Shown: positions 30,877 through 64,000, counted from the stretch's first letter. The stretch: 64,000 nt of DNA from Eledone cirrhosa (GCA_964016885.1 OZ024741.1:217434001-217498000); one strand, 5' to 3'. Made by a program: numbers and translations. The notes: generated from the sequence alone by a model not told the origin.

Positions 30877-31018
30877 TATATATATACATATATATATACA
30901 TATATATATATATATATATATATGTATGCACATATATATAAACATATATATATACATATATATATATACATATATATATATATATATATATTATATATAC
31001 ATATATATATATACATAT

Positions 31019-31288
31019 ATCATCATCATCATCATCATCGTTTAACGTCCGTGTTCCATGCTTGGTTTGGACGGGAGTTTTCCCACTTGAGGCAAGAGTG
31101 GTTGTCTTGCTCGCATAGGACTGTCTGGCGGGTTTTCTACAGTTGGATGCCCTTCCTAACACCAACCACATTTACAGTGTGGGGCTGGGAGGTTTTTACC
31201 GTGTTGCCTACACGGCCACATTACAGCGTGGACTGTCTGGCAAGTTTTCTACAGCTGGATGCCCTTCCTAACACCAACCACATTTACA
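31019..31288 (-). mobile_element. RTE subfamily B 3' UTR fragment with an internal duplication
   Basis: (CAT)n tail. The segment ggactgtctggc...ccaaccacatttaca occurs twice. Confidence 0.85.
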
Positions 31289-31616
31289 TATATATATACA
31301 TATATATATATATATATATACATATACATATATACATACATATATATATACATATATATACATATATATATATATACATATATATATATATACATATATA
31401 TATATATACATATATATATATATACATATATATATATATATATATATATACATATATATATATACATACCCCCCACTCTCCTGAGCGTGAATCTAATAAA
31501 CATTTGTCGTACTGCCTCTCTGTTCTGTCCCTGTTCAATTTTTTATTATATACATATATATATATACATATATATATGTATATGTATATATATATGTATA
31601 TATATATATGTATATA

Positions 31617-31953
31617 TCATCATCATCATTTTACGTCCGCTTATCCCTGCTTGCAAGGGTGGAACGGGAGCTGATTCTGGCTTGATTTCTACAGCTTGAT
31701 GCCCTTCCTAACACCAACCTCATTTACAGTGAGTGCTGGGTGCTTTTTTATCGTGGCATCTCCACGACCACTTTGTAGTGGAATGAAAGGGACCCCAGTG
31801 CCTATCATCTCATTTCTACAGCTGAGTAAACTGGAGCAATATGAAATAAAGTGTCTTGCTCAAGGAAACAACACATCACCCGGTCTGAGAATTGAACTCA
31901 CAACCTTTCGATTGCTAGGCCAATACTCTAACCACTAAGCCATGTGCCTCCAC
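31617..31953 (-). mobile_element. tRNA-headed RTE-tail SINE (same family as 26365-26698)
   Basis: Reverse complement of 26365-26698 with a more complete 5' end (gtggaggcacatggcttagtgg). Confidence 0.87.
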
Positions 31954-32328
31954 TATATATATATGTATATATATATGTATATATATATGTATGTATATAT
32001 GTATATATATATGTATATATATATATATGTATGTATATATGTATATATATATGTATATATATATATATATGTATATATATATATGTATATATATATATAT
32101 ATGTATATATATATATGTATATATATATGTATATATATATGTATATATATATATATATGTATATATATATGTATATATATATGTATATGTATATATATAT
32201 ATATGTATATATATATATATATATGTATATATATATATATATATGTATATATATGTATATATATATATGTATATATATGTATATATATATATGTATATAT
32301 ATATATTTGTATATATATATATGTATAT

Positions 32329-33151
32329 GTTTTTTTGTCGTGACACCTACTGACTGTGGTAGGTTTTACTTTGTATTTAGGTAGGGCGGGTCTTCTCTAT
32401 TACTGAGTACCGCCATAGGTCTCGGTCCAGTGACATTGTCTTGGAGAGGTGTATGTGTATATATATATATATGTGTGTATATATATATATATATATATAT
32501 ATATAAAATTAGAAATAAGAGGGATCAGATGTTGTTTACTCGAGAGAAGGCTACGTTGGTACGGTCAAGTGATGCGCATGAAAGTCGATAGCTGTATAAC
32601 AAAGTGCAGGGCAATAAAGATAGACGGTAGCCACGGAATAGGCAGACCTAGAAAATCCTGGGACGAGCTGATAAACTCCGACCTCACACACTTACACCTC
32701 TCCAAGACAATGTCACTGGACCGAGACCTTTGGCGGTACTCAGTAATAGAGAAGACCCGCCTTGCCTAAATACATAGTAAAACCTACTACAGCCAGTAGG
32801 CATCTCTAACAAAATACACCCCCGTCCCACCACCCCCACCCCATCCACACCATCCCCTCCTATGTAAAGTTATGTTGGTGCCACACCATCCAGGCCGAAA
32901 CAAATGAGATCGTGTAGGTGTCACGACAAAAAAACACACAGTCCATGCTGTAATGTGGCCGTGTAGGCAACACGGTAAAAACCTCCCAGTCCCACACTGT
33001 AAATGTGGTTGGTGTTAGGAAGGGCATCCAACTGTAGAAAACCTGCCAGACAGTCCTATGCGAGCAAGACAATCACTCTTGCCTCAAGTGGGAATACCCC
33101 CGTCCAAACCCATGCAAGCGTGGAACACGGACGTTAAACGTTGATGATGAT
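32329..33151. mobile_element. Two RTE subfamily B 3' fragments, head to head (32329-32452 minus; 32505-33151 plus)
   Basis: [20 protein letters not shown]...KTRLA followed by the 3' UTR and (GAT)n. The minus fragment has a deletion joined at a cctac microhomology. Confidence 0.88.
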
Positions 33152-59866: not shown

Positions 59867-60146
59867 TATATATATATATATGTATATATATATATGTGTA
59901 TATATATGTATATATATATATATATGTATATATATATATATGTATGTATATATATGTATATATATATATATATGTATATATATATATGTATATATATATA
60001 TGTATATATATATATGTATATATATATATATATGTATATATATATATGTATATATATATATGTATATATATATATATATGTATATATATATATATATGTA
60101 TATATATATATGTATATATATATATATATATGTATATATATATATA

Positions 60147-61153
60147 CCACAAACTACTAGCTCTTTCAATTGCGCAGAGGGTTCTATAGAAATAGTGGAC
60201 AGCTTCCGTTACCTGGGCGATAAAATCAGCAGTGGGGGAGGGTGCTCTGAAAGTACTGTAGCTAGAGTCAGAACTGGTTGGAAAAAGTTCAGAGAGCTTA
60301 TACCACTATTAGCTGCTAAAGGGTTCTCACTAAAAATGAAAGGCAGGTTGTACGATGCCTGCATACGAACAACAATGCTGCATGGCAGTGAGACCTGGGC
60401 ATTGTGTGCAGAGGATATACGCAGACTAGAGAGGAACGAAGCTTGCATGCTCCGCTGGATGTGTAACAGTAATATACGTGAACGGCAAAGCATAAACGAA
60501 CTAAGGAAAAAATTAGAGATAAGAGGGATCAGATGTTGTTTACTCGAGAGAAGGTTACGTTGGTATGGACACGTGATGCGCATGAAAGTCGATAGCTGTA
60601 TAACAAAGTGCAGGGCAATAAAGATAGACGGTAGCCACGGAGTAGGCAGACCCAGAAAAACCTGGGACGACCTGATAAATTCCGACCTCACACACTTACA
60701 CCTCTCCAAGACAATGTCACTGGACCGAGATCTTTGGCGGTACTCAGTAATAGAGAAGACCCGCCTTACAAAATAAAACCTACTACAGTCAGTAGGCATC
60801 TCTAACAAAATACACCCCGTCCCACCACCCCCACCCCATCCACACCGCCTCTTTCAATGTAAAGTTATGTTGGTGCCACAACATCCAGGCCGAAACAAAT
60901 GAGATCGTGTAGGTGTCACGACAAAAAAACACACAGTCCACGCTGTAATGTGGCCGTGTAGGCAACACGGTAAAAACCTCCCAGCGCCACACTGTAAATG
61001 TGGTTGGTGTGAGGAAGGGCATCCAACTGTAGAAAACCTGCCAGACTGTCCTATGCGAGCAAGACAACCACTCTTGCCTCAAGTGGGAAAACTCCCGTCC
61101 AAACCCATGCAAGCGTGGAACATGGACGTTAAACGATGATGATGATGATGATG
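60147..61153 (+). mobile_element. RTE subfamily B 3' kilobase (chimeric copy)
   Basis: Starts at ccacaaactactagc. The 5' part matches the 61314 copy and the 3' part matches the 58228 copy. Confidence 0.92.
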
Positions 61154-61313
61154 TATATATATATATATGTATATATATATATGTGTATATATATGTATAT
61201 ATATATATATATGTATATATATATATATGTATGTATATATATGTATATATATATATATATGTATATATATATATGTATATATATATATATGTATATATAT
61301 ATATATATATATA

Positions 61314-62336
61314 CCACAAACTACTAGCTCTTTCAATTGCGCAGAGGGTTCTATAGAAATAGTGGACAGCTTCCGTTACCTGGGCGATAAAATCAGCAGT
61401 GGGGGAGGGTGCTCTGAAAGTACTGTAGCTAGAGTCAGAACTGGTTGGAAAAAGTTCAGAGAGCTTATACCACTATTAGCTGCTAAAGGGTTCTCACTAA
61501 AAATGAAAGGCAGGTTGTACGATGCCTGCATACGAACAGCAATGCTGCATGGCAGTGAGACCTGGGCATTGTGTGCAGAGGATATACGCAGACTAGAGAG
61601 GAACGAAGCTTGCATGCTCCGCTGGATGTGTAACAGTAATATACGTGAACGGCAAAGCATAAACGAACTAAGGAAAAAATTAGAGATAAGAGGGATCAGA
61701 TGTTGTTTACTCGAGAGAAGGCTACGTTGGTATGGACACGTGATGCGCATGAAAGTCGATAGCTGTATAACAAAGTGCAGGGCAATAAAGATAGACGGTA
61801 GTCACGGAATAGGCAGACCTAGAAAAACCTGGGACGAGCTGATAAACTCCGACATCACACACTTACACCTCTCCAAGACAATGTCACTGGACCGAGACCT
61901 TTGGCGGTACTCAGTAACAGAGAAGACCCGCCTTACCTAAATATATAGTAAAACCTACTCCAGCCAGTAGGCATCTCTAACAAAATACACCCCGTCCCAC
62001 CACCACCACCCCCACCCGATCCACACCACCCCGTTCTATGTAAAGTTATGTTGGTGCCGCGCCATCGAGGCCGAAACAAATGAGATCGTGTAGGTGTCAC
62101 GACAAAAAAACACACAGTCCACGCTGTAATGTGGCCGTGTAGGCAACACGGTAAAAACCTCCCAGACCCACACTGTAAATGTGGTTGGTGTTAGGAAGGG
62201 CATCCAACTGTAGAAAACCTGCCAGACAGTCCTATGCGAGCAAGACAATCACTCTTGCCTCAAGTGGGACTACCCCCGTCCAAACCCATGCAAGCGTGGA
62301 ACACGGACGTTAAACGTTGATGATGATGATGATGAT
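61314..62336 (+). mobile_element. RTE subfamily B 3' kilobase
   Basis: Same 5' breakpoint as the 60147 copy. It shares private variants with 45931-46956. Confidence 0.93.
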
Positions 62337-64000
62337 ATATATATATATATATATATATATATATGTATGTATATATATATGTATGTATATATATATGTAT
62401 GTATATATATATGTATGTATATATATATGTATGTATATATATATGTATGTATATATATATGTATGTATATATATATGTATGTATATATATATGTATATAT
62501 ATATATATGTATATATATGTATATATATATATATATATGTATATATATGTATATATATATATATATGTATATATATGTATATATATATATATATGTATAT
62601 ATATGTATATGTATATATATATATATGTATATATATATGTATATATATATATGTATATATATATGTATATATATATATATGTATATATATATATATGTAT
62701 ATATATATATATGTATATATATATATGTATATATATATGTATATGTATATATATGTATATATATATGTATATGTATATATATATGTATATATATATATGT
62801 ATATATATATATGTATATATATATGTATATATATATGTATATGTATATATATATGTATGTATATATATATGTATATATATATATGTATGTATATATATAT
62901 GTATATATATATATGTATATATATATATATGTATATATATATATATGTATGTATATATATATGTATATATATATATGTATATATATATATATGTATGTAT
63001 ATATATATGTATATATATGTATATATATATATGTATATATATATATATGTATATATATATGTATATATATATATATGTATATATATATATATGTATATAT
63101 ATATATATGTATATGTATGTATATATATATGTATATATATATATATGTATATGTATGTATATATATATGTATATATATATATATATATGTATATATATAT
63201 ATATATATGTATATATATATATATGTATATATATATGTGTATATATATATGTATACATATATATATGTATATATATATATATGTATATATATGTATATAT
63301 GTATATATATATATATGTATATATATGTATATATGTATATATATATATATGTATATATATGTATATGTATGTATATATATATGTATATATATATATATGT
63401 ATATATATATATATATGTATATATGTATATATATATATATTTATATATATATGTATATATATATATATGTATATATATGTATATATATATATATGTATAT
63501 ATATATATATGTATATATATATATATGTATATATATATATATGTATATATATATATATGTATATATGTATATATATATATGTATATATATGTATATATAT
63601 GTATATATATATATATATGTATATATGTATATATATATATGTATATATGTATATATATATATGTATATATATGTATATATATGTATATATATGTATATAT
63701 ATATATATATGTATATATATATATATGTATATATGTATATATATATATGTATATATATGTATATATATGTATATATATGTATATATGTATATATATATAT
63801 GTATATATATGTATATATATGTATATATATATATATATGTATATATATATATATGTATATATATATATATGTATATATGTATATATATATATGTATATAT
63901 ATGTATATATATGTATATATATATATGTATATATATATATATGTATATATATATATATATATATATATATATCTATATATATGTATATATATATATATGT
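62337..64000. repeat. G-interrupted (TA)n array running off the window
   Basis: Seen directly. Confidence 0.97.

Follow-up and report, generated by a model that had tools for sequence, protein, structure and literature searches.

Polar interrupted (TA)n arrays within a nest of mobile elements in Eledone cirrhosa and a plausible orientation bias of one LINE family

We analyzed a 64,000-nt stretch of the Eledone cirrhosa genome (GCA_964016885.1, OZ024741.1:217434001-217498000; hereafter the window), whose downstream part holds a real nest of mobile elements within polar arrays of interrupted (TA)n repeat. The point at issue is whether the strand of an element follows the polarity of the arrays around it, and our results make orientation-biased insertion plausible for one family of long interspersed elements (LINEs), RTE_A. 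Exons of a Rho-family GTPase gene, which we take to be RhoBTB, lie upstream on the plus strand (approximately 21951-22130, 23312-23418, and 25151-25342), and therefore the element cluster likely sits in an intron of this host gene. The survey of elements spanned 26365 to the window end, while the coordinates of an original prediction, made by a model from the sequence, began at 30877. In this span we identified 15 retroelement copies, two Helitron-like inserts, one insert resembling a miniature inverted-repeat transposable element (MITE) and two other inserts, separated by 20 TA arrays. A TA array is present at both ends in 14 of the 15 retroelement copies, which is the pattern of a microsatellite-targeting cluster; related older tails without a TA array were found at ~23860 and ~25348.

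The arrays are built of (TA)n with in-phase transitions, either G for A (TGT, here G-type) or C for T (ACA, C-type), arranged in long runs of one polarity and mostly clean and in phase. Within 30877-64000 the interruptions comprised 852 TATGTATA, 69 ATACATAT and 19 others, meaning that nearly all are in-phase transitions. Over the 20 arrays in 26697-64000, G and C interruptions numbered 1006 and 81, respectively (93% G-type). Phase-breaking errors occur in 46955-52419 (69 TT and 24 AGT steps). Below, an element end is called concordant when a plus-strand element meets a G-type flank or a minus-strand element a C-type one. The features of the surveyed span, in window positions, are:

26365-26696, plus strand: SINE1, similar to short interspersed elements (SINEs), with (GAT)n tail and a presumably tRNA-derived head; 94% match to 31617-31943 in reverse; followed by a G-type array, 26697-26746
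26743-30875, minus strand: Penelope-like element PLE2; RVT_1 1e-8; GIY-YIG 3.4e-4, below the curated cut-off; terminal direct repeat and inverted internal copy
30876-31020: C-type array (8 C, 1 G, 1 TGCA)
31021-31288, minus strand: RTE_A 3′ fragment A1; C-type (on the plus strand) at both flanks, concordant
31288-31617: C-type array (12 C), 79-bp insert (31468-31546), then two C switching to four G
31618-31953, minus strand: SINE2, SINE-like, ending in (GAT)n; it lies in a G-type array and is discordant at either flank
31954-32327: G-type array (28 G)
32328-32457, minus strand: internal RTE_A fragment, inverted; both flanks discordant
32505-33149, plus strand: RTE_A 3′ fragment A2; G-type at both flanks
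33195-35358, plus strand: two tandem Helitron-like inserts (~33195-35121 and 35124-35358) splitting a G-type array
35358-39210: G-type array of 3.85 kb (353 TGT, 0 TGA) with higher-order repeats
39211-41486, plus strand: Penelope-like element PLE1, 5′-truncated (reverse transcriptase part, Cys linker, GIY-YIG); G-type at both flanks
41487-41899: array with 10 TGT and 10 TGCA; 3′ flank of minus-strand copy B, discordant or neutral
41900-43954, minus strand: RTE_B copy B (reverse transcriptase with PHD-finger insert); 45-nt duplication like a target-site duplication (TSD), with TGCA marker; 20-nt tandem duplication at the 5′ junction
43955-44036: array, one TGCA then three G
44037-44372, plus strand: RTE_A 3′ fragment A3
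44373-44736: G-type array (27 G)
44735-46954, plus strand: RTE_A copy W, 2.2 kb, 5′-truncated, frameshifted reverse transcriptase plus PHD, (GAT)n tail
46955-49909: array, G-type up to 49435, followed by a C-type block of 25 C (49442-49876) and then G; noisy consensus
49911-50190: non-coding, probably MITE-like insert with a 34-bp palindrome; relatives at 3969-4346
50190-53301: G-type array containing an assembly gap (52427-52626) and turning C-type (3 C) in its final 60-80 bp
53302-55064, minus strand: RTE_B copy B′; C-type at both flanks, concordant
55065-55399: array with 15 C, 6 G, 3 C
55400-56271: 872-bp insert, C-type on either side
56272-56364: C-type array (8 C)
56365-58030, minus strand: RTE_A copy V, internally deleted; concordant at the 3′ flank, with one C followed by G at the 5′ flank
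58031-58227: G-type array with three tandem copies (period 46) of the copy X 5′ junction
58213-59866, plus strand: RTE_A copy X, tail in phase as ATG|TA
59867-60146: G-type array a, 281 bp
60147-61153, plus strand: mosaic copy, 5′ half Y-like and 3′ half X-like, no independent insertion
61154-61313: G-type array a′ (161 bp), agreeing with array a in its first 10 spacings
61314-62334, plus strand: RTE_A copy Y, matching W at 99.8% identity across 1024 bp
62335-64000: G-type array (137 TGT), continuing past the window edge

The LINE copies belong to two families, RTE_A and RTE_B, which are 76% alike and which we take to be members of the RTE clade, on the strength of the original prediction and of C-terminal motifs. 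Their reverse transcriptase (RT) domain was recognized as RVT_1 (3.1e-32 and 2.7e-16) and carries in both families a PHD-finger insert between RT motifs (42511-43929, minus; 45391-46092, plus). This RT plus PHD architecture is common among relatives, with named matches in cnidarian, amphioxus, and fish. RTE-clade elements typically encode one ORF of ~1000-1100 aa with an apurinic/apyrimidinic endonuclease at its N terminus. All LINE copies at the locus are 5′-truncated; many relatives (51–61% identity) are ~1050 aa long and combine PF03372 with PF00078, and full-length relatives carry the endonuclease. Variable 5′ ends and (GAT)n tails of ~12-25 nt give the copies the 5′ truncation and tandem-repeat tail of such elements, and coverage by contigs rises toward the 3′ end of copy W. 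Copies B and B′ differ by 15 substitutions in 1771 columns, and both sibling pairs, W/Y and B/B′, differ in tails, truncation points, and flank patterns. RTE_A is abundant: 55,054 contigs of one sequencing run align to copy W, a figure that does not translate into a copy number. Among the matches listed, 20 of the 24 runs, from several organisms, contain part of RTE_A, and none of the 24 is an RNA run with RTE_A. Contigs of four of the 24 runs were aligned to copy W; they break at the tail repeat, and TA flanks at loose contig ends numbered 0 of 24 among the matches listed (there were 1661 more), which made flank polarity unreadable. Pattern scans of metagenome contigs gave no matches, and no locus was confirmed when prokaryote genomes and viral contigs were scanned at the protein level. 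Two related observations concern the LINE 3′ untranslated region (UTR). A 49-bp segment of it (46784-46832) is common to SINE-like families, and many contigs diverge at both its ends. At 24023-25111, within an intron, ~22 tandem copies of a 48-50-bp unit derive from a LINE/SINE 3′ UTR segment (~80% to 46702-46803).

The polar arrays and the sharp switches that the original prediction placed near 49440, 53240, and 55320 are present, the latter located at 49435/49442, 53216/53241, and 55316/55321. The flanks that it listed are likewise of the polarity given, all G-type for plus-strand and all C-type for minus-strand copies; those after 59866 and 61153 are indeed G-type, yet they belong to one duplicated unit and are not independent. 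To score the ends, we took the majority of the three nearest polar interruptions, excluded the mosaic duplicate 60147-61153 and included two ends at 26697-26746, beyond the coordinates considered earlier. Plus-strand ends were G-type in 13 of 13 cases. Minus-strand ends were C-type in only 6 of 14 and G-type in 8, and the claim that minus copies are mostly flanked by TACA-type arrays is therefore not borne out. As the region is 93% G-type, the plus-strand agreement is mostly background. The exceptions conceded earlier stand, and four more were not listed (41487-41899, 43955-44036, 32452-32505, and 26697-26746); the largest concerns the 2-kb minus-strand copy B (41900-43954), whose nearest interruptions are palindromic TGCA and the remainder G.

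Counted by junctions, the association of strand and polarity gave a Fisher p of 0.016, though the ends are not independent. When the elements were split by family, a choice made after seeing the data and with neighboring elements sharing arrays, the signal was confined to RTE_A. Once its inverted fragment was set aside, 13 of 14 RTE_A ends were concordant (p = 0.016 with free strand flips, 0.048 with fixed margins, post hoc), while all non-RTE_A elements together stood at chance level (6 of 11; p = 0.5 and 0.4). The proposal that elements insert in a fixed orientation thus fits RTE_A (p ~0.02-0.05, post hoc) and does not fit RTE_B, the SINEs or the Penelope-like elements. A sense-strand G flank was found at all seven RTE_A tails, two of them on the minus strand (binomial 0.008, Fisher 0.048). 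No C block is touched by a plus-strand element, and three of the four larger C blocks contain minus-strand retroelements. The distances from the RTE_A tails to the first G were 6, 6, 8, 8, 8, 15, and 30 nt, with the first G at 6-8 nt in five of the seven copies (p 0.037, post hoc).

Several observations indicate that the arrays likely existed before the elements inserted. At copy B, the left array closes, beside the tail, with the same 45 nt (three of them G/C) with which the right array opens. Random array positions matched as well as this duplication in 0.4% of trials (~0.04 over 11 elements). Of the 14 TGCA-type motifs in 26000-64000, 11 lie in the two arrays flanking B. Because the 45-nt duplication abuts the tail and the TGCA motifs cluster around it, we conclude that one interrupted array was split and that only the short (GAT)n tail was new. 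G-type array also lies on both sides of the antisense SINE2 and of the two Helitron-like inserts. Upstream of the cluster, three polar tracts occur with no retroelement seen adjoining: 5654-5881 (72 TG, 0 CA), 7157-7535 (65 TG, 3 CA), and 7799-8015 (0 TG, 77 CA).

As for the growth of the arrays, lag-2 spacing matches exceeded all 2000 shuffles in four of six arrays, the other two giving p 0.033 and 0.09. In the 3.85-kb array a block of 12 spacings is repeated (null maximum 7) and the spacing drifts along the array (Kruskal p 1.5e-10); in two other long arrays the repeated block, at 6 spacings, stayed below the null maximum of 7. Arrays a and a′ have the first 10 G spacings and both junctions in common and differ in length by 120 bp, the extra 120 bp of array a consisting of 14/18 repeats. 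The copy between them, 60147-61153, matches Y over its 5′ 460 bp and X over the remainder, and could have arisen by unequal crossover or as an assembly artefact. Spacing periodicity, repeated blocks, drift, and element-free polar tracts are the products to be expected of DNA-level tandem duplication, and the arrays thus likely grew by ordinary DNA slippage.

The two Penelope-like elements have three of four ends concordant, to which we give little weight; PLE2 is concordant at its 5′ and discordant at its 3′ flank. PLE2 bears a 288-bp terminal direct repeat resembling a pseudo-long terminal repeat (pseudo-LTR) and a 600-bp inverted internal copy of its 3′ region; no pseudo-LTR or tandem/inverted structure was seen for PLE1, whose GIY-YIG match (5e-4) is below the curated cut-off and whose RT part matches ~700-aa relatives. 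Helitrons are defined by a 5′ TC and a 3′ hairpin followed by CTAG, features displayed by the Helitron-like inserts, which have their 5′ 42 bp in common. In the longer one (33195-35121), positions 34317-35012 form an open frame of 231 aa that is rich in Ala, Arg, and Thr and has a 69-bp repeat; no Pfam match was found for it. The inserts at 3969-4346 and 49911-50190 are related, non-coding, partly palindromic, and TA-flanked, with pure TA at 4348-4411. For 55400-56271 there are no relatives within the window; its sole match among 1.84 billion proteins, an unrelated repeat protein, was rejected as unconvincing. Other long minisatellites lie upstream of the cluster at 652-2110, 8791-10275, and 17745-20470 (periods 40, 9-21, and 44).

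The reading that we tentatively prefer, at a little under an even chance, combines pre-existing arrays with a non-strict orientation preference of RTE_A. Each array would start from one A-to-G transition, which tandem duplication of multi-unit blocks would spread on one strand; polarity switches would lie where blocks of different seeding, or inverted ones, were joined, and the polar arrays would act as a common landing zone for unrelated mobile elements. The RTE_A endonuclease nick, or pairing of the (GAU)n RNA tail with the primer, may favor the strand that reads ATG at interruptions, placing the tail ~6-8 nt upstream of a G, and the RT would make only the short (GAT)n tail. Since ATG is available to a (GAU)n tail on the G strand alone, pairing offers a possible basis for the preference, yet only copy X ends exactly there.

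A number of points weigh against this interpretation. The orientation signal is small, post hoc, and limited to one family at one locus. Over all 14 elements, with 19 of 27 ends concordant, the element-level exact permutation gave p = 0.073 when strands were flipped freely and 0.035 when margins were fixed, and counting the inverted fragment reduces RTE_A to 13 of 16 (p = 0.06 and 0.11). An in-phase ATG|TA tail end occurs in one of 11 tails, that of X. Because neighbors share arrays and several copies are close relatives (over ~210 bp, A1 and A3 show two differences, W and Y none), there may be only three to five independent events. Single-marker duplications of 14-19 nt at A1, SINE2, A3, and W are no longer than chance (P 0.19-0.39) and were rejected as evidence; no TSD was found at five further copies, which leaves B as the one of 11 beyond chance. 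The switches count against it too: the 25-C block 49442-49876 lies within a G-type array with no retroelement adjoining, and mirrored spacings were absent around all 14 listed G/C transitions, on which ground a fold-back origin was rejected. The switch center at this block is a short palindrome, with spacings not mirrored. Finally, faulty assembly could have produced the a/a′ pair and the mosaic copy, and the reiterated 5′ junctions of B and X described below could have come from template jumping by the RT or from simple tandem duplication.

A somewhat unlikely alternative is that the arrays pre-exist and slip as above, and that the link to strand is chance compounded by non-independence, arising from the G background, shared arrays, and local block duplication or inversion. 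The predominance of G (1006 vs. 81) was possibly helped by transcription of the host gene, whose upstream exons are indeed on the plus strand. Eight G-type minus ends of 14, an overall p of 0.073, and the 6 of 11 for non-RTE_A elements all suit this explanation, as do the one demonstrated duplicated unit and the near-identical neighbors W/Y and B/B′. Copy B′ with its C flanks resembles an inverted block inside a G-type array; inversion, however, preserves concordance and cannot create it. Chance also has to accommodate the agreement of seven of seven RTE_A tails and the placing of minus-strand, never plus-strand, retroelements in three of the four larger C blocks, and W/Y and B/B′ differ in the way that independent insertions would.

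We regard it as unlikely that RTE_A propagates its own polar target, by read-through or RT reiteration that primes on and extends like-oriented arrays into head-to-tail LINE-microsatellite chains, with A-to-I editing as a possible source of G. Taken in its transduction form alone, the idea appears less likely still. Here, RTE transcripts would read into the downstream array, carry a piece of it (3′ transduction) and prime on like-oriented arrays, which accounts for TA targeting and orientation together. RNA hairpins are subject to editing, and in a variant of this scheme A-to-I editing of self-pairing (UA)n RNA would supply the sense-strand G; the interruptions are A-to-G on the RTE_A sense strand, as it predicts. 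Near-identical siblings, though, have no first 3′ spacings in common (W 8, 17, 5; Y 30, 4, 12), copy B leaves no room for a carried array between tail and duplication, and 5′ flanks are as polar as 3′ flanks. Editing is further opposed by the spacings, which form higher-order repeats and not independent edits, and by a family body with no sense A>G excess relative to W: in one run, A>G was seen at 38, T>C at 46, C>T at 87, and G>A at 59 places, a comparison that is unpolarized and weak. In the available parts of the literature, target-RNA pairing is reported to aid priming for the I factor, R1Bm and R2Ol (PMC6007223), and the octopus RTE 3′ UTR is described as mostly microsatellite (PMC9115989), both of which would favor transduction.

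The original prediction had also proposed that the RT itself lays down TA/TG repeats by reiterative, telomerase-like copying, each insertion making a new target. Very long arrays (up to ~3.9 kb) do adjoin young copies. At the 5′ junctions of B (43924-43965, period 20, twice) and X (58117-58227, period 46, three times), the junction sequence recurs in tandem, with TA separating the repeats. As far as the accessible portions of the sources go, RTE and L2 elements are reported to show slippage of the RT at their 3′ repeats (PMC2887409, PMC3747384) and Penelope-like RTs are sister to telomerase (PMC8557442). We nevertheless find this possibility very improbable. Clean arrays contain TGT and no TGA, while the (GAT)n tail lacks a GT step, so the element holds no template matching the array unit; for the same reason seeding of the arrays by the tail's own G, which would give TGA, was rejected for 10 of 11 tails. 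The unit distribution is neither shared by siblings, since W/Y (99.8%) and B/B′ (15 substitutions) have unrelated 3′ flank patterns, nor stationary along a single array. No new sense-polarity repeat lies between TSD copies: at B, the one informative TSD, the duplication abuts the tail and the polarity is antisense or neutral, and the SINE2 flanks are antisense as well. Arrays a and a′ differ by 120 bp with junctions unchanged, polarity is as marked in 5′ as in 3′ flanks, and polar tracts occur without elements. Nothing here shows that the RTE enzyme writes the repeats, and several tests within the window contradict synthesis. Least probable of all is an assembly artefact for part of the pattern, with collapsed or mixed haplotypes and noisy long-read consensus joining G- and C-type reads or duplicating units; the 200-bp N gap, the phase errors of 46955-52419, and the X/Y mosaic point that way, but most arrays are clean, and the C blocks 30876-31464 and 56272-56364 adjoin elements a long way from the gap.

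If the RTE_A preference held genome-wide, interrupted (TA)n would show, in natural insertions, how nick and priming are arranged in a very abundant animal LINE, and would directly test the proposed pairing of RTE tail and target. If only pre-existence and slippage were true, the locus would be a transposon nest in a microsatellite of the ordinary kind. Massive TA expansion would be explained by self-feeding synthesis, which would also tie LINE RT to telomerase-like behavior; the evidence here opposes such synthesis.

Athena and Coprina are retroelements attached to telomeres. In the parts of PMC8557442 available to us, they and telomerase offer a similar picture, with same-orientation retroelements between repeats that have G on one strand. 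Unlike them, our locus has no fixed unit and no matching template, is likely intronic and not terminal, and includes clear antisense insertions. The same source describes Neptune and Naiad Penelope-like elements with a (TA)n insertion bias and RT plus GIY-YIG, to which the copies here are comparable in lying in (TA)n, in the Cys-rich linker of PLE1, and in the pseudo-LTR-like repeat of PLE2; no polarity relation is reported in its accessible text. Cleavage of AT-rich sites on both strands by a Penelope-like protein is described in PMC11167929 (in the part available).

TA-targeting transposon clusters are already known. In MuTAnT (PMC4486113) and the pineapple Ac-mMITEs (PMC8449440), as far as the available text of each extends, element clusters are likewise joined by (TA)n. 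Filled MuTAnT sites are longer than empty ones with no RT involved (PMC4486113), and a filled-vs.-empty length comparison is therefore not decisive. For Ac-mMITEs, flank polarity follows element orientation and is attributed to post-insertion DNA slippage (PMC8449440); their polar repeat matches the element's terminal bases, whereas here an in-phase TGT seed is present in only one of 11 tails. Both systems, as described in those parts, lack RT and involve mostly pure (TA)n, unlike the present locus.

In Lepidoptera, RTE 3′ ends also lie beside simple repeats and the tail can be lengthened by RT slippage, and the mark of an RTE-made microsatellite is a new repeat between TSDs (PMC2887409, in the part available). 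At our locus, by contrast, only the ~12-25-nt (GAT)n tail lies between them, and the array at B is found both in and outside the duplication. The available sections of the octopus repeat papers PMC9115989 and PMC13282606 do not mention polar TA flanks, and those of PMC4758252 and PMC3747384 provide general background. In a partial coverage of the literature by title and abstract, supplements excluded, we found no description of how LINEs are oriented with respect to interrupted (TA)n; TA targeting by RTE_A could already be noted in annotations of the Repbase type.

Close counterparts are also found in LINEs and SINEs of the RTE clade with microsatellite tails and a Tn-TA insertion signature (PMC6007223, PMC13295347). 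In the accessible text of these two papers, neither insertion into long (TA)n with interruptions nor any orientation with respect to these is reported; RTE-clade elements are described as having asymmetric target signatures and tail-dependent cleavage or priming, a point in favor of the orientation preference proposed for RTE_A. They share with the copies described here the same 5′ truncation, a short trinucleotide tail, and a proposed directional role for that tail. As presented there, they insert at dispersed T-stretch/TA sites, whereas the Eledone cirrhosa copies occupy long interrupted (TA)n and possess an RT with a PHD-finger insert.

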